From: Erythrobacter sp.
GTDB lineage: Bacteria > Pseudomonadota > Alphaproteobacteria > Sphingomonadales > Sphingomonadaceae
Direction of reading: 5' to 3'
Assembly: GCA_030148605.1 (NCBI GenBank)
Contig: JASBTD010000016.1
Coordinates: forward strand, 8,006 to 72,005
Length of the DNA stretch: 64,000 nt
Below are positions 1 to 11,415 of this stretch, one piece after another. Under the pieces are notes generated by a model that saw only the letters and a program-made list of their open reading frames with translations, ran no database searches and was not told the origin of the DNA. How positions within the stretch are numbered: position 1 is the first letter of the stretch; the number at the start of each line of letters is the position of its first letter. The position numbers were made by a program, and so were the translations under genes.

Positions 1-1098
1 ATCAATTCCGGGTCCAGCGCAGGCTTTGGCATCCGGCTGGGTTATGACACAGTCAACAACCGCGTATTCGTGCTTGAAGCCTATGAGAATGCGCCGGGTC
101 TTACCGCCGGGATGGATCGCGGGACTGAACTGCTCGCGATCGGGACCAACAGCACCAACCTGCAATTGGTCAGCACTTTGATGGCATCGGGCGGCCCGCA
201 AGCCGTAATCAATGCTTTGGGCCCCACCGATGCCGGCATCACACGTGTGATCCAGTTCCGCACGGCCGCCGGCGTCGCCACTGAATCCAGCATCACCAAA
301 GCCGATTTCTCGCTCGACCCCGTGTCCGATCGCTATGGCGTGCGCATTATCGACGATGGCGGCAAGAAGGTCGGCTATCTCAATCTGCGCACCTTTATCG
401 TTGCGAGCGCGGAAGATGATCTGCGCGCAGCCTTCCAGCAGTTCCGGACTGAAGGCATCACCGAACTGATCATCGATTTCCGCTACAATGGCGGCGGGCT
501 GGTCCGGATCGCGGACCTGATGGGCGATTTGATGAATAACGGTAGAGCGGGCCAGGTCTGGTCGAAAACCATCCTGCGCGATTCCAAGGCTGCCGAATTC
601 AACGAGACAACCAATATCCTTTCACAGCCTGAAGCGCTCACCCCCACCAAGGTCGCATTCATTGGCCGCGGCGGAACGGCATCAGCCAGCGAGCTGGTGA
701 TCAATTCCATGCTGCCGTATCTGGGCAACAATGTCGCGCTGATCGGTGCCAATACGTTCGGCAAGCCTGTCGGGCAAAGCCCATTTAGCCGCGCCGAATG
801 CGATGACCGCTTGCGGGCTGTGACCTTCAAGACTGTCAATCGCGACGATCAGGGCGAGTATTTTGGCGGGCTGGCGGATGTGGTTCCCAACACCTGCCTC
901 GCCAATGATGACATATTCACGCAATTGGGCGAACCGAGCGAAGCCTCAATTGCAACCGCGCTCGATTTCCTGGCCGGGCGCAGTTGCACCGCGATTGCAG
1001 CCGAAGGTGTCAGGACAACGCAGTCTGCTGCGACAAGGCAGCTGCTACAACCCGATCAACCCAATGCGGCGCAATATCAGATTCCGGGGCTGTTCTAG
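1..1098 (+). CDS. S41 family (tail-specific/C-terminal processing) peptidase, 5' end outside window
   Basis: Frame is open from base 1 ([13 protein letters not shown]...). It has a PDZ-like segment, [12 protein letters not shown], catalytic Ser in TASASE and Lys in TFGKPVGQ. Confidence 0.85.
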
Positions 1099-1123
1099 GG
1101 TCAGCGAAGGAGGCAGAGTTTCA

Positions 1124-1456
1124 ATGGCGCGTGAATATACCAGCTTCGCCGAATTCTGGCCGTTTTACCTGCGCGAACACAGCAAGCCGCAAACGCGCGC
1201 CTTGCATTACATCGGCACTAGCCTGGTGGTGGCGATCGCAGTGTATTCGCTTCTAACCGGGAGCTGGCTGTTGCTGATCGGGCTGCCTGTGGCAGGTTAC
1301 CTCTTCGCATGGGTCGCGCATTTCATGATCGAACGGAACCGCCCCGCGACCTTCACATATCCGCTGTGGTCGCTGGTCGCCGATTTCCGCATGTGGGCCC
1401 TATGGTTGACCGGACGGATCAAGCCCGAACTGGAGCGCGCCGGAGTATCCCGCTAG
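1124..1456 (+). CDS. DUF962/Mpo1-like membrane protein
   Basis: [32 protein letters not shown] ... [19 protein letters not shown] is typical of DUF962. GGAGG lies upstream of ATG 1124. Confidence 0.85.
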
Positions 1457-1460
1457 CGCG

Positions 1461-1868
1461 CTAAAGCGTGTCAGGCACAGTCTCAAAGCCGGGGATACCG
1501 CCCAGATCGACCCAATCCTGCTTGCTCTTGGTGTAGCAATGGAAGCTGGGCTTGAGGCTTGATGTGTCATCCAGCGTTCCAGCCTTGATGAACATCACGC
1601 CGGGCGGATGCGCAACCTGCGTGAACACGGGTGATCCGCAGTTCTCGCAGAACTGGCGTCCCACGGTTGCGCCGCTATCGCCGGTATCATTGTAAGTCTT
1701 GACTTCGCCTTGCACTTCGACCGAACCTTGCGGCACCCCGATGATGATCGAAAGCGCGCTGCCGGCCTGTCGCTGGCAGTTCTTGCAGTGGCAGGTCACG
1801 CACATCAGCGGATCGGTTGTAAGCTCGTAGCGGACATTGCCGCACAAGCAGCCACCGGTGAGGCCCAT
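1461..1868 (-). CDS. GFA (CENP-V/glutathione-dependent formaldehyde-activating) family zinc protein
   Basis: GGCLCGNVRY, CHCKNCQR and FCENCGSP cysteine motifs. Confidence 0.9.
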   Translation of the reverse strand: MGLTGGCLCGNVRYELTTDPLMCVTCHCKNCQRQAGSALSIIIGVPQGSVEVQGEVKTYNDTGDSGATVGRQFCENCGSPVFTQVAHPPGVMFIKAGTLDDTSSLKPSFHCYTKSKQDWVDLGGIPGFETVPDTL

Positions 1869-1870
1869 AT

Positions 1871-2278
1871 CTATTCTCCCTCACCTTGCGTCGCGCTGGT
1901 ACCGTCAAGGCCATCGGGCAAGTCACCATGGGTGAACAGGAAGACCAGGAAGCCAAAAGCAAACAGCGCATCCCCCGCCAGAACAGCCGAGATCAGAGTG
2001 CTGCCGGTTGGTCCGAATTCGCCGGGGCCGAGCAAGGCGACGACGCCGACCTTGCCGAGGATACCCGCCCACAGCACCGGCCCGAAACGGCGCGGATCGC
2101 GCGCGACCTGCATGTAAACAATGCCGAAGGCGAACACGAGCAAGCCGATCGTGCGCCCGTCAATGGTGGCTTCGGGAACGAGCATGCCCGCCAGCCCGAT
2201 CGCGAAATTGAATGCTGCTGCAACCCAGAAGAAAGTCTTCCAGCCGCGCGCTGTTTCACCGTATTTGCTCATGCTCAA
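1871..2278 (-). CDS. Hypothetical multi-pass membrane protein
   Basis: Four hydrophobic segments; tightly packed with neighbours (4-bp overlap upstream, 2-bp gap downstream). Confidence 0.7.
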   Translation of the reverse strand: MSMSKYGETARGWKTFFWVAAAFNFAIGLAGMLVPEATIDGRTIGLLVFAFGIVYMQVARDPRRFGPVLWAGILGKVGVVALLGPGEFGPTGSTLISAVLAGDALFAFGFLVFLFTHGDLPDGLDGTSATQGEGE

Positions 2279-2760
2279 GGTGTCTCCTCACCGCTAAAAC
2301 CCTGCTGATCCGTATAGCCGCAGCCATTGAGCTGCGCTTCGCCAATTGTGACTGTGACGGTATAGGGATAGGTCCGGTCACTCATCCCGTCCGAACATTC
2401 GCCCGGCGTGATCGCCATCTGCAGCGCAGCGCCTTCGAGCTCGCCTGAAATGCCCAAGCCGCCATTGCCGGAAAAACGCGTGATGTCGATCGCTGTGCCT
2501 TCGATATTGTCAGGCGTCGACCATGTCAGCCGCTCGCCTTCCACCACCCCGCTCCAGAACGGTTCGGTTCCCAGCGCAGTGATCACTTCGCTATCGCCTA
2601 TGCCTTCGAATGCCGGAACATCGCCTGGCTGGTCTTCACCTCCGCCAAAGCAAGCGTAAAGCCCCATCGAAGCAAAGGCAGCGATGAGCAGCCGTGTGCC
2701 GAACTCTTTACCTATCATCGGCCAATTCTCCCCCTGACCGGGAACGGTGATAGACCGCAC
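2275..2760 (-). CDS. COG3650-like exported/membrane protein (start may be near 2718)
   Basis: ALGTEPFWS and ITPGECSDGMSDRTYPYTV...LNGCG motifs; N-terminal hydrophobic stretch ending in Cys. Confidence 0.75.
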   Translation of the reverse strand: MRSITVPGQGENWPMIGKEFGTRLLIAAFASMGLYACFGGGEDQPGDVPAFEGIGDSEVITALGTEPFWSGVVEGERLTWSTPDNIEGTAIDITRFSGNGGLGISGELEGAALQMAITPGECSDGMSDRTYPYTVTVTIGEAQLNGCGYTDQQGFSGEETP

Positions 2761-2836
2761 TTGCTGCCCTTGTCACGCCCCTGTGTTGGCCTGATGCGAG
2801 ATGATCCCGCGCTGAAGCAGCCCCAGCGCAGCGGGC

Positions 2837-3181
2837 CTACATCACCTTGTCAGGGCGCGGATCATGCTTGTGGCGCGATTCCCTGCCAAAATGGCGATCA
2901 AGCCGCTCGAACAGGATATTGCCCGCCTTGCGCGCGGCATCATCCACTTTTGAGGCATGCGCTGTCACGCCCAGCGGCCTGCCACCGCGCGGGCGAGCCT
3001 CGATCGTACACGTCTTGTCATCGGCCCCGTGCTTATGCGCGTTCTCGTCCGAAACATGCACTTCGATCCGGGTCAGCCGGTCTTCATAGCGCGCCAGGCG
3101 ATGGCGCAAATGCGCTTCGATCCGCTCGGCGACGTTTTCCGTGCCCATCACGCTGCTGTCGGAGTTGAACTGGAATTGCAT
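2837..3181 (-). CDS. HPF/RaiA-family ribosome-associated protein
   Basis: MQFQFNSD ... LTRIEVHVSDENAHKHGADDKTCTIEARPRG. Confidence 0.85.
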   Translation of the reverse strand: MQFQFNSDSSVMGTENVAERIEAHLRHRLARYEDRLTRIEVHVSDENAHKHGADDKTCTIEARPRGGRPLGVTAHASKVDDAARKAGNILFERLDRHFGRESRHKHDPRPDKVM

Positions 3182-3427
3182 ATCGGGTGCTCCTCTCGGT
3201 TTCTCTTCGCTTGCATCCAAGATGGGAATTGGCGGCGCCAAGTCCAGCGAAATCGACTCTGTTTTTCCTACAGGATGGAACACATGGAACACAGTCCATG
3301 GAGCAAAAACAGCGCGCGCCGATCCGGCCTGTGAAGCCCGCGAAAACCGCGCATATTCAAGGTGTTTGCATGCATCCATCGGTGAACGAATAGTCCCTGC
3401 GCGCGATGTAGGAAAGCGCGCGAGGCC

Positions 3428-4054
3428 CTACCCCTCGATCAGCACGATGTCCCATTGGTAGCGATGATCGCCCAGAGCCTTCGCCACCGAAGTTGGCGCG
3501 CCTTCGTCCAGCGACTGATACAGCGGATCCTGGCGGTTCGCCGCTTCATCTTCCGGAAAATACATTTGCAGGATCTGCCGAGAGGACATTCCGCTCGCAT
3601 CCATATGGATATGCGGCGGGCGATTGCCCACCGGGCTGTCATAGGCTGCAGGTTTGATCGTGGTCAGCTTCCAGTTGCCATCCCTTCCGGTATGGATCGA
3701 GGCATAGCCCTGGAAATTGGGATCGAGCGGCATCACAGCCGGGTCTTCGGGATGGTCATACCGTCCAAAGGCATTGGCTTGCCAGATATCGAGCCGCGAA
3801 CCCACAATGGGGTTGCCGTGCCGGTCAAGCACGCGGCCCATCACTTCGATCACCTGGCCCTGGGCCCGCTCTGCGCCTGCGCCAATCCGCGTCAGGTCAG
3901 CATCGGTTTCACCGCGATAGCCGGTGGGGAAGAACGGCCCCAGCGGCGATCCGGCGGTGATCGTTTGTGCTGCCACGCTGCTGGCACCTGCGGCTGTTGC
4001 AAGCGCGCCCGCGGTGAACATGCGGCGCGTGATCGGATGGTATTTGTGAGACAT
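3428..4054 (-). CDS. Intradiol ring-cleavage dioxygenase (protocatechuate 3,4-dioxygenase beta-like) with Tat-type signal
   Basis: WQANAFGRYDHP, TIKPAAY and RPPHIH supply the Tyr/Tyr/His/His iron ligands. N-terminus is TRRMFTAGALA. The longer 513-aa ORF call is a read-through artefact. Confidence 0.8.
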   Translation of the reverse strand: MSHKYHPITRRMFTAGALATAAGASSVAAQTITAGSPLGPFFPTGYRGETDADLTRIGAGAERAQGQVIEVMGRVLDRHGNPIVGSRLDIWQANAFGRYDHPEDPAVMPLDPNFQGYASIHTGRDGNWKLTTIKPAAYDSPVGNRPPHIHMDASGMSSRQILQMYFPEDEAANRQDPLYQSLDEGAPTSVAKALGDHRYQWDIVLIEG

Positions 4055-4174
4055 GGCTGGGCCCCTCCGGCAATTTCCGGCGACCCATGCAGTCCGAACT
4101 ACCCGCACGACCAAGCGATGTCCACACAGGTGTTTGCAAGCCGGGCTTAATCGGGCATATCCGCAGCATGGGTC

Positions 4175-4945
4175 GTGCGCACAAGGGGGATTTGCGCGAT
4201 GGACCCGCGTTTTGCGACAAGGCATGCTTTCGACAGCCGTTTCTGGGCACTGATCTGGCTTTACATTCTCGTCATTGTTCTGGTGGGTTTCAGTCCACCG
4301 GTTCAGGACCGCTTCTTCGACGATTTTCAGGAACCTGCTTCCATTGCGCTGCAACTGCATGTGTGGAGCTTTGGCGCTTGGATGGTGCTGCTCGCCACGC
4401 AGGCCTGGTTCGCCAGCACAGGGCGGATGGAACGACACCGGATGTTCGGCAACGCGATGCTGCCGCTCGCGGCGGTGATGGTGCTGTCGGCAGGGATAGC
4501 CGAGCTGCAATTCCACCAAAGAGTGATTGCCAATGGCGGCAATGAGGCGGGCTTCACCGCAATCAGCGGCACCTATCTGCTGCCTTTCTGCGTGCTCGTG
4601 CCAATGGCATGGATCGCGCGCAAAGACCCGCCTGCGCACAAGCGGCTGATCCTGATGGCGACCGCTACTATCTGCGCCGGTGCGCATTTGCGCGCGGTCA
4701 GCATCTTCTCGCCAGAGGCGTTCTGGCGCAGCGATGCCTATCTCAACCATCTGGTGTTCGGCTTTGGCGGATCGATGCTGATCATCGCGATGGGCATGGC
4801 TTATGACCTCTATTCCAGAGGGAGCTTGCACCCGGTCTACCGCAAGGTCGCACCGGCGCTGTTCGTGCTCTATGTCGTGGCGGCCTGGGCCTATGGCAGC
4901 GAGGGCTATGCCGACATCGCGCGGCGAGTGATCGAAGCGCTTTAG
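4175..4945 (+). CDS. Hypothetical multi-pass membrane protein with His-containing helices
   Basis: About 7 hydrophobic segments; LQLHV, RHRMFG and AHKRLILMAT motifs. Confidence 0.7.
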   Translation: MRTRGICAMDPRFATRHAFDSRFWALIWLYILVIVLVGFSPPVQDRFFDDFQEPASIALQLHVWSFGAWMVLLATQAWFASTGRMERHRMFGNAMLPLAAVMVLSAGIAELQFHQRVIANGGNEAGFTAISGTYLLPFCVLVPMAWIARKDPPAHKRLILMATATICAGAHLRAVSIFSPEAFWRSDAYLNHLVFGFGGSMLIIAMGMAYDLYSRGSLHPVYRKVAPALFVLYVVAAWAYGSEGYADIARRVIEAL

Positions 4946-5000
4946 GCTCGCAAGTCCAACATTCATCACCCGGCATCACAAGGATCCAGGTGGAATGGTT

Positions 5001-5216
5001 TTACTGGCTTTCCAGCTCTTCAGCGGCGCGGCGCTGGGCGCGCGCTTCTTCCGCCTCGGCGCGATCGGTCGCAACCTTGCGCGCCTGCGCCGCCAGCCCG
5101 CGCCAGGTCTTCTCCGCTCGCAGCTCGCGCTCGCGCACATTTTCAAGCTCCGCCTCTTTCGCCCTTACAGCGGCTTCTTCCGCGCGTTCGTGATAGAGTT
5201 CGTAAGTCTGGGCCAT
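5001..5216 (-). CDS. Small coiled-coil hypothetical protein
   Basis: MAQTYELYHERAEEA...ENVRERELRAEKTWRGLA; Glu/Ala/Arg-rich; GGAG precedes the ATG. Confidence 0.7.
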   Translation of the reverse strand: MAQTYELYHERAEEAAVRAKEAELENVRERELRAEKTWRGLAAQARKVATDRAEAEEARAQRRAAEELESQ

Positions 5217-5307
5217 GGGCGGTTCCTGTGTGCGTGGGTTTAAAAGATCAGCGGGCGAGAAAGGGTGGAGCCGGCATGTGCACGGCCCCACCCCGTTCCG
5301 ATTGCGA

Positions 5308-5520
5308 TCAGTCAGCAGCCGAAAGGTTGACGGCGCTTTCCTTGCCATTGCGGCCCATTTCCACGTCATAGTTAAGGCGCTGGTCCTTATCGAGCGTGGT
5401 CATGCCGCCTGCCTGCACGGCAGAGATATGGACGAAGCTGTCGCTTGAGCCATCGTCGGGCTGGATAAAGCCATAGCCCTTGTCGGTGTTGAAGAATTTT
5501 ACTGTGCCAGTCTTGGCCAT
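5308..5520 (-). CDS. cspA: Cold-shock protein
   Basis: GTVKFFNTDKGYGFIQP (RNP1) and FVHISAV (RNP2). Confidence 0.95.
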   Translation of the reverse strand: MAKTGTVKFFNTDKGYGFIQPDDGSSDSFVHISAVQAGGMTTLDKDQRLNYDVEMGRNGKESAVNLSAAD

Positions 5521-5799
5521 GATGCGTTCCTTTCAAGAACGTGAGTGTTGCCCGCGCGGCAGGGTGCCGGGCGGGTGGTGCGTCAATTCGTTCAGATGAA
5601 AGGAATTCGTCGTCCGGTTAACGCCGGGGGTGTTGGACACCAAACGGCGGAGCGCAAATTTCAAGTTCCGTCGCAAATTCCGACGTCAGCAAGCAGGCTT
5701 ATAGCAGGGAATGGCTGAATCGCCTAATTATTACTGCGGCGCGCAATTTTTGAAGGTTGAGAGGACGCGCGATCAGCTGCCTCAATCGGCAAAAATCTT

Positions 5800-5892
5800 C
5801 CGTTCACCCTGAGCCCGTCGAAAGGTTGTCCTTTTTCTGGAGGCCCGTTGCCAAACTGAAGTGCAGAGCTTCGACAAACTCAGCCCAAGCGG
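5800..5892. repeat. REP-like paired palindrome (CCGTTC...TGAGCCCGTCGAA / TTCGACAAACTCAG...CGG type)
   Basis: ccgttcaccctgagcccgtcgaaagg ... gcttcgacaaactcagcccaagcgg form imperfect inverted arms, just downstream of ethD. Confidence 0.7.
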
Positions 5893-5900
5893 CACTGTAT

Positions 5901-6278
5901 TTAGATCACTTCATTCGCCCGTGTGATGAAGGCGCGGGATCGGACGAAGTCGATAAAGTTCTTCTCATCCTCGAACAGGATCACGGCGTGCCTGTGCCCC
6001 TCTTCAGTGGCAGCGGCGGCGGCGACGGCCTCCTCGCTGTCGAACCACAACTCGGCCACGCCGTCAAAATCCTCACCATCGCCATAGGGGATGCCGCGCC
6101 CTGCATTGTTCGCGGCCGCGATTGGACTGTCGACGGTATGCTGCTGGATATAGCGGCGAATGCCCAGTGCCTCACGCGCGTCCTCGACCAGCGGGGCGTG
6201 CGTGTTGCGCCAATAGTCCTGGAACTGCGCGCGGGAGAGCGAAGGGAGACGATGCAGGCAGTACGTGAGTTTGATCAT
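5901..6278 (-). CDS. EthD-domain protein (dimeric alpha/beta barrel)
   Basis: F..YW...HAPLV, FDGVAELWFDS and DEKNFID motifs; the start overlaps the doc stop (ATGA). Confidence 0.9.
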   Translation of the reverse strand: MIKLTYCLHRLPSLSRAQFQDYWRNTHAPLVEDAREALGIRRYIQQHTVDSPIAAANNAGRGIPYGDGEDFDGVAELWFDSEEAVAAAAATEEGHRHAVILFEDEKNFIDFVRSRAFITRANEVI

Positions 6279-6281
6279 GGA
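6085..6281. repeat. 197-bp direct repeat, copy 1 (5' half of ethD)
   Basis: Aligns without gaps to 7099-7295 with 13 mismatches by manual count. Confidence 0.95.
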
Positions 6282-6673
6282 TCTTTCTCCAGATGCTCGC
6301 GGAACCAGTCGGTCAGCTCTTCTTCTGACAATTCGCCAGCGGCCAGGGAAAGCACACAGCCAATCGCCTCACGTGGTTCGAAAGCAAGGCTCATCCCATT
6401 CAGCCGCAGAAATAGGCGCGCAAAGACCCACGCCGTTCGTTTGTTTCCATCGACGAAGGGATGGTTGCGGGCGATCCCATTGGCATAGGCCGCGGCAAGA
6501 GTGCACAGATCATCCTCGCCATAATTCCATCGGTTGACCGGACGTGCGAGCGCGCTTTCAAGCGCCCCTTGGTCGCGCACACCGGTGGGTCCGCCATGCT
6601 CGGACAGTTGGCGGTCATGAACCGCAAGCGCTACGTCGAGAGAAAGCCATTCCGGCTCGGTGCGAGAGCTCAT
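6275..6673 (-). CDS. doc: Doc/Fic-family type II toxin (death-on-curing)
   Basis: HPFVDGNKRTA Doc-type Fic motif; EHGGPTGVRD..LESALARP N-terminus. Confidence 0.92.
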   Translation of the reverse strand: MSSRTEPEWLSLDVALAVHDRQLSEHGGPTGVRDQGALESALARPVNRWNYGEDDLCTLAAAYANGIARNHPFVDGNKRTAWVFARLFLRLNGMSLAFEPREAIGCVLSLAAGELSEEELTDWFREHLEKDP

Positions 6674-6679
6674 GCTACT

Positions 6680-6785
6680 CCCCTCCCGTATACGGGAGGG
6701 GTCGGGGGTGGGCATGGGCCAGAACGGCCCACCCCGCTGCGACTAGCGAGCAGGCTCGCTGCCCCTCCCGCGAGCGGGAGGGGAT
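6680..6785. mobile_element. Gene-less composite palindromic element (REPIN/MITE-like) between antitoxin and toxin
   Basis: Hairpins cccctcccg-tata-cgggagggg (6680-6701) and cccctcccg-cgag-cgggagggg (6762-6783), with inner arms ggggtgggc/gcccacccc. Confidence 0.75.
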
Positions 6786-7013
6786 TCACTTCGCCAATTC
6801 GCGCAGGATATCGCGATCCTCACGCATGATCGCCTCGGCCGCTTCCATCTTGGTGGCAAAGTCCGGATCGACAGCGGTCAGCCGCACACCATCAGGCGCT
6901 TCGGTGAGATACAGCTGATCCCCCGGCCCAACCCGCAGGCGCGCCAGCACCTCCTTGGGCAGGACGATCCCGGCGGAATTGCCGATCTTGGTGATCTTGA
7001 GCGGCTTGTTCAT
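6786..7013 (-). CDS. AbrB/MazE/SpoVT-family antitoxin
   Basis: LKITKIGNSAGIVLPKEVLARL...GD.LYL; ends MREDRDILRELAK; lies upstream of doc. Confidence 0.9.
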   Translation of the reverse strand: MNKPLKITKIGNSAGIVLPKEVLARLRVGPGDQLYLTEAPDGVRLTAVDPDFATKMEAAEAIMREDRDILRELAK

Positions 7014-7016
7014 ACG

Positions 7017-7030
7017 GGTGTTATAACGCA
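7017..7030. promoter_or_regulatory. Probable TA autorepression operator
   Basis: Palindrome GTTATAAC (7020-7027) a few bases upstream of the antitoxin ATG. Confidence 0.5.
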
Positions 7031-7097
7031 CGTATGAGCGACAAGCAAGTGAGTGGGATTTGGTGCACCGAAATTGAGTGCACTGTCACTGTAATTT

Positions 7098-7293
7098 CTA
7101 GGGGATGCCGCGCCCTTCATTGTTGGCCGCCGCAATCGGGCTGTCGACGGTGTGCTGCTGGATATAGCGGCGAATGCCCAGTGCCTCACGCGCGTCCTCG
7201 ACCAGCGGGGCGTGCGTGTTGCGCCAATAGTCCTGAAACTGAGCGCGGGAGAGCGAAGGGAGCCGGTGAAGGCAGTAAGTGAGTTTGATCATG
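7098..7293 (-). pseudogene. Truncated ethD 5' fragment (direct repeat copy 2)
   Basis: MIKLTYCLHRL...NNEGRGIP then TAG, where the intact copy continues TAT GGC. Confidence 0.9.
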
Positions 7294-7355
7294 GAAAGAG
7301 CGCTACAATCAGGATTGAAGTTTTTTGGAAACAAATATTGAAGTAACATTCTATA

Positions 7356-7979
7356 ATGGAACTTCTTCAGGATCATCCATTGGCATTTGTGATCGTGCTG
7401 GTGCTCGGTGCTATTATTGGCATGGCGGTCGAACGCTTTGTCGAGACGCAAGACAAGGAGAGGCGCAAGGCCTACTGGCGGGGTCGGAACGCGCGCAAGA
7501 ATGGCCCCAACCTCAAGACGATTGAGCGCGCCGAGCGCAAGCAAGCGATTGCAGCCGATTTCTCGACCAATCAGTTGAAGACAGTGATGGCAGCCGCGTT
7601 TGATTCCCGCCCGCTGCTCAACCGGCCGGAGGCCAAGGTGTTTCTGGCACTCGACCAAGCAGTGATTTCGCGCAATTCGGGTTGGCAAGTAATGGCGCAA
7701 GTGTCGTTAGGCGAATTCCTCTCCAGCAAGGACAAGGATGCCTATCTCGCAATCAATTCAAAGCGGGTCGATTTCGCCCTGATGGATGAGAATTGCTGTG
7801 TGATCCACGCGCTCGAGTATCAAGGCAATGGCCATCATCAAGGTACCGCTGCCGCGCGCGATGCAGTGAAAAAGGAAGCGTTGCGGAAAGCGGGCATCGG
7901 GTATCACGAGATCGTGGCGGGTCACACCACACCAGCCGAACTGCGGGCGCTGGTGGAGAAATTGGTTCCGGGAGGTTAG
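7356..7979 (+). CDS. DUF2726-like protein (restriction-endonuclease-like fold) with N-terminal membrane anchor
   Basis: TM helix LAFVIVLVLGAIIGMAV; LLNRPE, MAQVSLGEFL, KRVDFALMD, LEYQGNGH and RDAVKKEALRKAGI. Confidence 0.8.
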   Translation: MELLQDHPLAFVIVLVLGAIIGMAVERFVETQDKERRKAYWRGRNARKNGPNLKTIERAERKQAIAADFSTNQLKTVMAAAFDSRPLLNRPEAKVFLALDQAVISRNSGWQVMAQVSLGEFLSSKDKDAYLAINSKRVDFALMDENCCVIHALEYQGNGHHQGTAAARDAVKKEALRKAGIGYHEIVAGHTTPAELRALVEKLVPGG

Positions 7980-7991
7980 GTTTTCCCAATT

Positions 7992-8020
7992 CGTCATCCT
8001 GAACTTGTTTCAGGATGACG
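7992..8020. repeat. CGTC-tagged palindrome, probably a bidirectional terminator
   Basis: cgtcatcctgaa-cttgt-ttcaggatgacg is a perfect 12-bp stem between convergent genes. Confidence 0.8.
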
Positions 8021-8047
8021 GAGGATGCAAGCCGGTAGTTTGGACGA

Positions 8048-8520
8048 TCACCCCTTCACCGCCCAGCATTCCAGCTCGACCCGCCGCGCGCCTAGCGCGA
8101 GGCCGTTCGTGCCAAAGGCTGAGCGTGCGGGGTAGCGGCCCTCCTTGAAATGCTCTGCATAGACCGCGTTGAAGGCGGGCCATTCGCTCATATCCGCCAG
8201 CATCACTGTGCATTTGAACACATCATCAAACGTCAGATCATGCCGCGCCAGCCGCGCTTCCATCCGCTGGAAGATGCGGCGCGTTTCCGCTTCCACCCCG
8301 CCCGGCACCACGCCGGTGCCCGCATCATTCGCGCCGATATCGCCTGACAAGTAGAGCACGCCGCTGACCTCCACCGCGTCAGAGAAGGGATAGGGCAATT
8401 CGGAGGCGTGATAGACCGCGCCGTCTGCTTTGGCCGCCGCGTCCTCACCCTCACCCGTTTTGATCGAGCAGCCGCCGAGCGCGAGGCCTGCTGCGAGCAC
8501 TACAAGAGCAGCTGATCGCA

Positions 8521-8521
<1 letters not shown>
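8048..8521 (-). CDS. RidA/YjgF/UK114-family protein with lipoprotein signal
   Basis: PFSDAV...LYLSG, FNAVYAEHF, YPARSAFG and VELEC. N-terminus is MRSAALVVLAAGLALGGC. The ATG overlaps the thiC stop (TGATG). Confidence 0.85.
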
Positions 8522-10645
<2,124 letters not shown>

Positions 10646-10731
10646 CAGGTCCTACCCGTTAGGGCGGACAAGGTAAAGCCGTCGCGCGCCATGATTGACT
10701 CGCGCCACACGCCGCTTCATGCCTTTGCACC

Positions 10732-11415
10732 ATGCCGCTTCCCGAACCCAAGGTTTCAGTCCGCCAAATGGGCCGCGAAGGTGAGCCGCTGGTTGTGATC
10801 GACAGTTTCAGCGGCAAGGTAGAGGAGCTGCGCGAAGCCGGTTATGCCGCACAATATCAGGATGCAGGCGCTCACTATCCGGGTCTGAGATCCTGGGCCG
10901 ATCCGGGCTATCTGGACCTGCGCAGGCCCTTGATGATCCAGATCATGCAACGGGTTTTCGGCCTCACACGCGGCGTACAAATGGATGCCTCTACCTTTTC
11001 GCTTGTCACCCTGCCTGAAGAGGAGCTGAGCCCCCAGCAGCGCATCCCGCATTATGATCACGAGAGCGACAAGGTCATCGGGATCATGCATTACCTGCTG
11101 GGCCCGGAAAGTGGCGGCACTGCGTTCTACCGGCACCGGCGCACCGGCTTCGAAGCGATCACGCCCGAGCGCATGCAAGCTTTCTTCGCGGGCCTTGCCG
11201 ATGACGAGAGCGAGTTCGGGATGATCCCGCCGCGCTATCACCATGGCGACAATGACTGGTTCCAAATGATCGACGAAGTCGAGGCGCAGCCCGACCGGAT
11301 GATCATCTATCGCGGGCGGCAGCTGCATTCCGGCATCATTCCAGATCCCGCCGCGCTATCTGCTGATCCGCGCAAGGGCCGGTTGACGATCAATATGTTT
11401 ATCCGCGGTCGTTGA
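10732..11415 (+). CDS. DUF6445-family protein (2OG-Fe(II) oxygenase-like)
   Basis: PLVVIDSF, YPGLR, QRIPHYD (HxD), GGTAFYRHRRTGFEAIT, YRGRQLHSG and RLTIN. Confidence 0.75.
   Translation: MPLPEPKVSVRQMGREGEPLVVIDSFSGKVEELREAGYAAQYQDAGAHYPGLRSWADPGYLDLRRPLMIQIMQRVFGLTRGVQMDASTFSLVTLPEEELSPQQRIPHYDHESDKVIGIMHYLLGPESGGTAFYRHRRTGFEAITPERMQAFFAGLADDESEFGMIPPRYHHGDNDWFQMIDEVEAQPDRMIIYRGRQLHSGIIPDPAALSADPRKGRLTINMFIRGR

Follow-up and report, generated by a model that had tools for sequence, protein, structure and literature searches.

A toxin-antitoxin pair between two copies of the ethD 5' end in an Erythrobacter contig: a probable recombination scar in a small replacement islet

How does a chromosome come to carry the beginning of a gene twice, with a toxin-antitoxin (TA) pair lying between the two beginnings? 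This question was raised by the window analysed here, a stretch of 64,000 nucleotides from Erythrobacter sp. (GenBank assembly GCA_030148605.1, contig JASBTD010000016.1, positions 8,006 to 72,005 of the forward strand; positions below are those of the window). In this window an intact ethD gene is preceded by a predicted AbrB-Doc pair and, further upstream, by a second copy of its own 5' end, here called ethD'. In our view, recombination in an Erythrobacteraceae (Altererythrobacter-like) chromosome probably left this locus as a scar within a small replacement islet. The two arrangements that would have been merged were both found separately in relatives, and the stretch upstream of ethD varies in content between otherwise collinear strains.

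The locus and its 197-nt direct repeat

The features of the locus are listed below. L-numbers denote loci or contigs of relatives, X-numbers denote metagenome runs, and strain R is the dominant strain in the aquatic metagenomes X4, X5, X7 and X8.

5901-6278, minus strand: intact ethD, 125 aa, with its ATG inside the doc stop overlap (ATGA); PF07110 at 8e-23 and TIGR02118 above cutoff
6085-6281, minus strand: repeat copy A, 3 nt upstream plus codons 1-65 of intact ethD (first two bases of codon 65)
6275-6673, minus strand: predicted doc toxin gene, 132 aa, Fic/DOC fold, motif HPFVDGNKR
6679-6784: pair of repetitive extragenic palindrome (REP)-like palindromes, CCCCTCCCG-N4-CGGGAGGGG, in the antitoxin-toxin spacer
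6786-7013, minus strand: predicted AbrB/MazE-type antitoxin gene, 75 aa, 'doc_partner'
7014-7052, minus strand: TA promoter/operator region, palindromic box GTTATAAC at 7020-7027
7053-7098: 46-nt flank between the TA promoter and ethD'
7098-7292, minus strand: ethD' open reading frame (ORF), codons 1-64 plus a TAG made at the joint
7099-7295, minus-strand reading: repeat copy B, from repeat detection
7293-7355: divergent promoter region of ethD and DUF2726, 63 nt, homologous to the ethD-DUF2726 intergenic sequence of L141
7356-7979, plus strand: DUF2726 gene, 207 aa, PF10881
6283-8008: variable slot, the only stretch within window 1-11408 that is not collinear with the relative L117
7993-8019: REP-like hairpin GTCATCCTGAACTTGTTTCAGGATGAC, whose loop holds the right-hand edge of the slot

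In the direction of transcription, the order is promoter, ethD', the 46-nt flank, TA promoter, antitoxin gene, a 112-nt spacer, doc and complete ethD, all on the minus strand. Repeat detection returned one direct repeat (6085-6281 and 7099-7295), which is gap-free and 93% identical, with its copies 1014 nt apart. Homology begins 3 nt 5' of the ATG (TCCATG) and ends sharply after codon 64, breaking within one base at both 7098/7099 and 6084/6085. The base after the repeat completes TAT (Tyr65) in the intact copy and TAG in the upstream copy. Thirteen mismatches separate the copies: 12 are synonymous third-position changes (codons 5, 8, 9, 10, 17, 19, 47, 51, 52, 53, 55 and 56), and one exchanges Ala59 for Glu59 (GCA/GAA). 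At least 12 synonymous changes among 13 would be expected under neutrality with a probability of 4e-7, and dN/dS is ~0.02. The 12 synonymous changes among 13 mean that the divergent bases must have arisen in working ethD alleles somewhere; they do not date the duplication. The mismatches are also clustered: coding positions 15-57 hold 6, positions 141-176 hold 7 and the stretch 58-140 holds none; the probability of finding 83 or more consecutive identical nucleotides is 0.008.

The intact copy contains the full EthD domain (profile positions 2-95 of 96, 81.8 bits), and ethD' covers just positions 2-44 of 96, being an incomplete family member. At 6275-6278 the TGA stop of doc can be read directly as overlapping the ATG of ethD. 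The Doc protein matched PF02661 with 67.8 bits (cutoff 24; 1.6e-18) and TIGR01550 with 68.2 bits (cutoff 38.65). Its translation holds ARNHPFVDGNKRTAW, which matches the catalytic motif of Doc, HxFx(D/N)(A/G)NKR. The antitoxin gene, on the same strand upstream of doc, encodes a product matching PF04014 with 37.4 bits and TIGR02609 'doc_partner' with 83.6 bits (cutoff 55.9). With both proteins exceeding curated family cutoffs, AbrB-Doc is a predicted TA pair. The GTTATAAC box of its promoter is kept in L007, L033-L035 and L046. Homology to other TA contexts stops at 7027/7028, and strain R and one X10 contig diverge at 7028.

The reality of this structure was assessed in public runs containing the locus, examined as Logan contigs built with k = 31, which end inside the repeat. 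One 949-nt contig (L116) is 100% identical to window 6234-7182 and carries both novel junctions, doc/ethD and ethD'/TA flank; the same contig was recovered identically from three independent ballast-water metagenomes (X1-X3). The promoter-ethD' junction lies on separate contigs from the same samples (L113-L115), which run from the upstream ethD copy into DUF2726. Meanwhile, the shared repeat core stands at ~2x depth. An assembly artefact, in which differing ethD alleles from two strains of one sample were merged into a false duplication, might be suspected from the co-occurrence of close strains with differing arrangements in X4-X8 and from a tract (7263-7293) found solely in this assembly. 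Against these observations, the three ballast-water metagenomes reproduce the junctions, and the artefact, which we find hardly credible, was rejected.

An earlier, sequence-only reading of this DNA had reported the repeat coordinates, the 13 mismatches (12 synonymous, one Ala/Glu), the TAG/TAT difference and the doc-ethD coupling overlap. Re-reading returned each of them exactly. Its description of a TA pair with an ethD 5' fragment on one side and an intact ethD on the other was confirmed by the Logan contigs as well. Exact-protein look-ups for EthD and the 75-aa antitoxin gave no match, nor did an exact-pattern scan of Joint Genome Institute (JGI) metagenomes for the promoter-ethD' junction, and an EthD scan of the JGI metagenomes found just two close relatives.

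A variable slot between ridA and the ethD start

The closest species representatives belong to Altererythrobacter and other Erythrobacteraceae (EthD 82-85% and ThiC ~92% identical). A closer relative, L117-L119 (one JGI metagenome and two Logan assemblies), was reached via a 96%-identical EthD (P0001). L117 is collinear with window 1-6282 (97.15%, ungapped) and 8009-11408 (94.9%). In between, its slot holds an unrelated 1.6-kb cassette, composed of a 286-aa ORF and a 2-oxoglutarate (2OG)-Fe(II) oxygenase gene whose stop overlaps the ethD ATG (ATGA). The edges of the slot are the ethD start codon on one side and the loop of the REP-like hairpin 7993-8019 on the other, and the palindrome GTCATCCTGAACTTGTTTCAGGATGAC may serve as a slot breakpoint.

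At least six different upstream neighbours of ethD were observed among close relatives, in a slot without an integrase. In the first arrangement (i), DUF2726 is divergent from a full-length ethD (L221 and L222, EthD 86%; L141, 60%). In the second (ii), AbrB-Doc directly precedes ethD with the identical ATGA junction in L120 (96%), L219 (92%), L124 (84%) and strain R; the doc-ethD junction of all four reads ...GACTGGTTCCGCGAGCATCTGGAGAAAG..CCATGATC, without ethD'. In strain R, which lacks ethD', the TA promoter abuts a DUF2726 3' remnant. The remaining neighbours are (iii) the L117 cassette of the 286-aa ORF and the oxygenase, (iv) ridA followed by a 66-nt spacer in L220, (v) a 209-aa dioxygenase-like gene in L002 and L121, and (vi) a 150-aa ORF in L003 and L004. 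DUF2726 and thiC occur together in 57 of 80 Sphingomonadales loci (L139-L218), and DUF2726 is truncated or lost in several close relatives, with remnants in strain R, L003 and L004. Among 80 other Doc loci across bacteria, none had EthD adjacent to doc, which there has its own stop and an intergenic region. Therefore, the doc-ethD junction is clade-specific and inherited, and does not represent a general cassette.

The border of the slot bears the trace of recombination expected of such a place. Against L117, 21 differences fall in 6103-6282 (11.7%) vs 158 in the other 6102 nt (~2.6%), giving p = 3e-8 for this peak of single-nucleotide polymorphisms (SNPs). Copy A differs from L117 at 20 sites in the first 195 nt and at 5 in the remaining 180. 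The peak is mostly synonymous, with 4 amino-acid changes among 20 coding differences, and its dense block ends 18 nt from the repeat end. For replacement islands, the passages of PMC4033161 dealing with their borders describe a 'tell-tale peak of mostly synonymous substitutions' produced by homologous recombination. The present locus likewise shows different content at one place, conserved boundaries and a synonymous peak, and the slot is best described, from these sequence comparisons, as a small replacement islet without an integrase.

Search by ORF and family found only DUF2726, ethD', AbrB and Doc in the slot of the window, with no integrase and no attC/att sites. PADLOC gave no defence-system assignment for DUF2726, and its matches to Doc were weak. 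A transposon or insertion sequence was rejected: positions 6282 and 7098 have no terminal inverted repeats, a transposase is absent, and the repeat measures 197 nt at 93% identity. An integron cassette or integrative element was likewise rejected: no integrase or att site was seen, the flanks are collinear with L117, and the inverted repeats are only REP-like hairpins.

Several further observations concern the neighbourhood. The L117 cassette (L117 6533-8004) consists of a 286-aa ORF without a family match and an AlkB-like oxygenase matching the 2OG part of PADLOC 'CARF_2OG' (5.6e-43). At 6348-6370, L117 retains one hairpin arm and the loop in opposite orientation, followed by its own cassette. 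AbrB-Doc stands beside DUF2726 in 9 of the 80 Sphingomonadales loci, divergently upstream in three (L148, L170 and L177) and between DUF2726 and thiC in six (L147, L171, L191, L192, L204 and L207); judged by these loci, the thiC-DUF2726 neighbourhood is a recurrent landing place for the AbrB-Doc family. In L003 (5391-5471) and L004 (1384-1518), both from Altererythrobacter species, a C-terminal DUF2726 remnant lies convergent just after ethD, and ethD stands between thiC and ridA. This order differs from that of the window and indicates that the neighbourhood has been rearranged repeatedly.

Within X12, a freshwater-sediment metagenome, many ethD-core variants occur at depths up to ~800x, with loose ends at window 7293 and 7001. 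They carry further sequences upstream of the ethD start as well as other AbrB promoters, so that the diversity of the slot exceeds the sample here. On the other side of ethD, ~145 nt located 3' of the gene (5756-5900) are absent in strain R and L124 (joint 5755->5995) and present in L117; this segment resembles an inserted repeat element (TTCACCCTGAGCCCGTCGAAAGG...CTTCGACAAACTCAGCCC). Across the slot, thiC differs from L117 by 7-14 differences per 100 nt in much of the gene (8400-10400) vs 0-3 at 10400-11408, which looks like another recombination tract.

Mosaic alleles and the origin of the duplication

Comparison of the ethD alleles revealed a three-part mosaic. At coding positions 1-57, copy A groups with L117. 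At 58-140, both copies are identical and share derived states (e.g. Asp33) that are found neither in L117 nor in outgroups. At 141-194, copy B groups with L117, R and L219, and the tract 141-176 of copy A (window 6103-6138) has 7 private differences in 36 nt vs all close relatives. The relatives are mosaics as well. In L120 an R-type doc end is followed by an L117-type ethD, and the 3' end of the R-type ethD comes from a more distant allele. The TA genes of window type and R type have cores that are ~70% identical, and the last 40 nt of doc are identical. Such mosaic alleles in L120, strain R and the window mean that crossovers are frequent around the ethD 5' end in this population.

One tract could be placed in time. 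The X1-X3 strains equal the window over 6234-7182 (949 nt) and over the DUF2726-ridA contig, except for 5 SNPs in the 5'-most part of copy B, all within 31 nt (L115; 7263, 7266, 7269, 7278 and 7293). Their copy B has A-type bases at coding sites 24, 27 and 30, k-mer-linked to the B-specific promoter. Because otherwise identical strains lack it, the tract 7263-7293 post-dates the duplication. With the tracts 24-30 of copy B and 141-176 of copy A set aside, the copies differ at only ~3 sites. Continued exchange of short tracts would probably explain both the 83-nt core of full identity and the clustering of the differences, nearly all of which are synonymous. A 125-nt double-depth contig, with sites 51/57 A-type in X1 and B-type in X2/X3, was considered as strain-specific gene conversion and dropped, a popped assembly bubble being equally possible; the one robust tract is that at sites 24, 27 and 30.

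These results bear on several claims of the sequence-only reading. It had taken the copies for functional alleles of different lineages; the 12 of 13 synonymous changes support functional alleles, but in view of the identical 83 nt, the shared D33 and the short tracts, the divergence is no evidence for old alleles of separate lineages over the full length of the copies. Its argument that the divergence excludes a recent duplication fails, since one tract arose afterwards and the differences do not date the event. Nor does allele type track context, the promoter-linked copy B being closest to doc-linked alleles elsewhere; the phylogeny it proposed for each ethD half gives way to the three-way mosaic, and no tree results. 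In the comparison of upstream genes across relatives, which it also proposed, both arrangements were found separately, and the X1-X3 strains share the arrangement of the window. Its idea that a cassette arrived by using ethD as the anchor is supported by the parental arrangements in L221/L222/L141 and L120/L219/L124/R. The related suggestion of an integrase-free exchange hotspot at the ethD 5' end holds to the extent that at least six neighbours, a SNP peak in the first 180 nt and a slot without an integrase were observed.

We propose the following history, in which the order of events and the mechanism of the joint are what we infer. The ancestral order would have been csp <- ethD <- P -> DUF2726 -> <- ridA <- thiC, and related strains would have had AbrB-Doc directly upstream of ethD, its ATG overlapped by the doc stop. 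Arrangements (i) and (ii), joined at ethD codon 65, would then have given that of the window. Since relatives have each of the parental arrangements on its own, the simplest history is a merger with ethD as its anchor. The product would consist of the native promoter and codons 1-64 (copy B), the joint 7098/7099 that makes the TAG, a 46-nt foreign flank, the TA genes and the complete ethD (copy A). Hence ethD' would be a displaced 5' fragment left at its ancestral position, and the flank was presumably carried from the donor. Such an event would require one homologous exchange in ethD and one illegitimate joint, and the insert is indeed bounded by recipient homology on one side and by a non-homologous joint on the other.

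Two routes may lead to this product. Linear DNA could have entered by homology-facilitated illegitimate recombination, or a circle bearing the TA genes and ethD 1-195 could have integrated by a single (Campbell-type) crossover. Later, short tracts would have passed among the copies and the ethD alleles of other strains, through gene conversion or homologous recombination. In copy A, the foreign-looking sequence reaches as far as 176, near the break at 195; this fits a donor homology ending there, an agreement that is only suggestive. The recipient could equally have been either partner, that is, the chromosome with copy B in its ancestral context, or an R-like TA chromosome that gained DUF2726-promoter-ethD(1-195). 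A choice of recipient by allele similarity was attempted and failed, since the alleles are mosaics that do not track context. Only ordinary, known processes are needed for this history, and no new kind of element or mechanism.

Several points weigh against the proposed merger. Copy B differs at 7-8 sites from the alleles of R and L219, which are doc-linked, vs 30 from the DUF2726-linked allele of L221. A donor of the window-type TA genes or of the 46-nt flank was not found, the best AbrB being 85% and the best Doc 71% identical. The identity of the copies at 58-140, with its shared derived states, is also what local duplication would give. Strain R could be the descendant of a window-like ancestor by an 800-bp deletion, which would make the duplicated arrangement older. 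Finally, the whole picture of present expression given below is deduced from the DNA itself.

As for the flank, no match was found in genome contigs, and an exact-pattern scan of GTDB genomes for its 21-nt palindrome gave none. Its part 7073-7095 (ATTGAGTGCACTGTCACTGTAAT) matches L046 at 22 of 23 positions, ~190 nt upstream of the AbrB gene there, a possible clue to the donor context. L202 and L217 show weaker matches of 18-19 nt immediately past the stop of DUF2726.

Some of the same points would favour another history. In this alternative, the TA genes entered a resident ethD once and duplicated ~197 bp locally, short conversion tracts wrote the differences later, and the doc-ethD strains without ethD' (R, L124, L219 and L120) are deletion derivatives. 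The identical 83-nt core with its shared derived states, the few differences outside the two tracts, and the one tract that followed the duplication are all in keeping with it, and strain R differs from the window by a single deletion (7029-7850). On the other hand, such an insertion must have duplicated exactly positions -3 to +195 and set the doc stop on the ethD ATG, and to our knowledge no transposase-free insertion mechanism gives a 197-bp target duplication. The ~70% identity between the TA cores of the window and strain R calls for a second replacement anyway, and the ATGA junction is also present in the unrelated L117 cassette. Taken as a whole, including the deletion derivatives, we regard the local duplication as unlikely, and the merger of two arrangements remains the preferred history.

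Present state of the insert and comparison with known systems

In the present arrangement, ethD would be the third cistron of an autoregulated TA operon, without a promoter of its own and translationally coupled to doc. At 7-14 nt before the ATG of the intact ethD stands the sequence GGAGAAAG. The old promoter may still drive the 64-codon fragment, with read-through into the TA operon; a search for a terminator-like site between ethD' and the antitoxin gene found none. The antitoxin-toxin spacer (6674-6785) is 112 nt long vs the usual 3-25 nt in other AbrB-Doc loci. Its two REP-like palindromes and inner hairpins fold with -77.7 kcal/mol (z = -4.3), and the ribosome-binding site of doc (GGAGG) is located in the 3' arm of the last hairpin. 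These hairpins could reduce translation of the toxin or give the antitoxin portion of the mRNA greater stability. Similar palindromic insertions were seen in the AbrB-Doc spacers of L007 and L046.

A more elaborate explanation regards the ethD start as a selected, integrase-free docking site and the 197-bp repeats as a switch, in which RecA-dependent loop-out restores promoter-ethD and post-segregational killing by Doc retains the insert. Repeats of such length and identity are RecA substrates, and short-tract exchange is documented there; the stabilisation of chromosomal segments by TA pairs is an established idea. The TA contig stands at 0.8-0.85 of the depth of its flanks in X1 and X2. Yet these depth differences are within noise (the flanks in X3 are at 31 and 62), and the slot variability and synonymous peak are fully explained by ordinary homologous replacement. 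No deletion product was seen in the k = 31 contigs, which end in the repeat. We hold this explanation to be quite improbable.

Similarly, we give little credence to its extended form, in which unrelated cassettes (AbrB-Doc and the 2OG-oxygenase pair) were repeatedly fused via ATGA and a 397-nt contig from X11 represents a circle or tandem. Three unrelated last genes do end on the same ATGA; however, this junction is automatic because ethD starts ATGATC. The X11 contig reads AbrB, TA promoter, joint, ethD(195..1) and doc 3' end, as a circle or tandem junction would, but it crosses a 125-nt exact repeat at k = 31 with a depth of 3.45 and is possibly an assembly chimera. It aligns with window 6967-7295 and then 6283-6350.

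Read as a merger in a replacement islet, the locus offers a natural case in which both products are visible at single-nucleotide resolution, namely clean cassette replacement and the rarer one-sided illegitimate scar. It also illustrates that an almost purely synonymous divergence of two repeats need not tell the age of their duplication, as short conversion tracts from other strains can add it later. Moreover, the 197-bp repeats around a Doc module, together with otherwise identical strains in ballast water, provide a system for asking whether chromosomal TA pairs guard their own insertion.

Homology-facilitated illegitimate recombination (de Vries & Wackernagel 2002, Prudhomme et al. 2002 and Meier & Wackernagel 2003, as cited in the relevant passages of PMC5361080 and PMC3240628) resembles the present case in having one homologous anchor (ethD) and one non-homologous joint (7098/7099), without integrase or transposase. 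Its typical products delete recipient DNA by the anchor, whereas here the anchor is duplicated, as concluded from comparison of strains. In E. coli lacZ, single crossovers of circles with partial homology gave duplications of 109-950 bp, according to the section of PMC3240628 on these products. The window shares with such Campbell-type integration the order of truncated copy, insert and complete copy and a repeat as long as the homology, and its 197 bp fall in that range. Unlike in that system, no circular intermediate is known for the 1-kb TA-plus-ethD' unit.

The replacement flexible islands of PMC4033161, as far as its account of them goes, likewise concern strains of 95-97% identity with differing content, a synonymous peak and no mobility genes. 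The slot of ~1.7 kb with 2-4 genes is far below the O-antigen and glycosylation islands in size, it holds a TA pair, DUF2726 or an oxygenase pair and not surface-structure genes, and a fragment scar was left behind. Homology-facilitated illegitimate recombination has also been invoked for displaced gene remnants beside toxin/immunity modules (PMC5361080, in its discussion of these modules). There, the orphan modules of type VI secretion system effector-immunity, Rhs and contact-dependent inhibition loci similarly have a conserved-gene anchor, with the displaced end kept beside a toxin/antidote pair. As described in that discussion, however, it is the conserved 5' part that serves again, with 3' ends accumulating downstream, while here the 5' fragment lies upstream and the anchor is outside the toxin system.

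Compared with P1 phd-doc and chromosomal AbrB-Doc systems, the module has the same antitoxin-toxin order, the Fic fold and motif, an AbrB 'doc_partner' and a promoter palindrome; it differs in the 112-nt REP-like insertion between the genes and in the coupling of an unrelated third gene, ethD. The last parallel is with e14 and phage 21, which enter E. coli icd by a site-specific integrase, duplicating its 3' end, so that the ends differ almost only synonymously. There as here, a gene is kept intact by the insert's copy of the interrupted end, but at ethD it is the 5' end that is duplicated, and no integrase is present.

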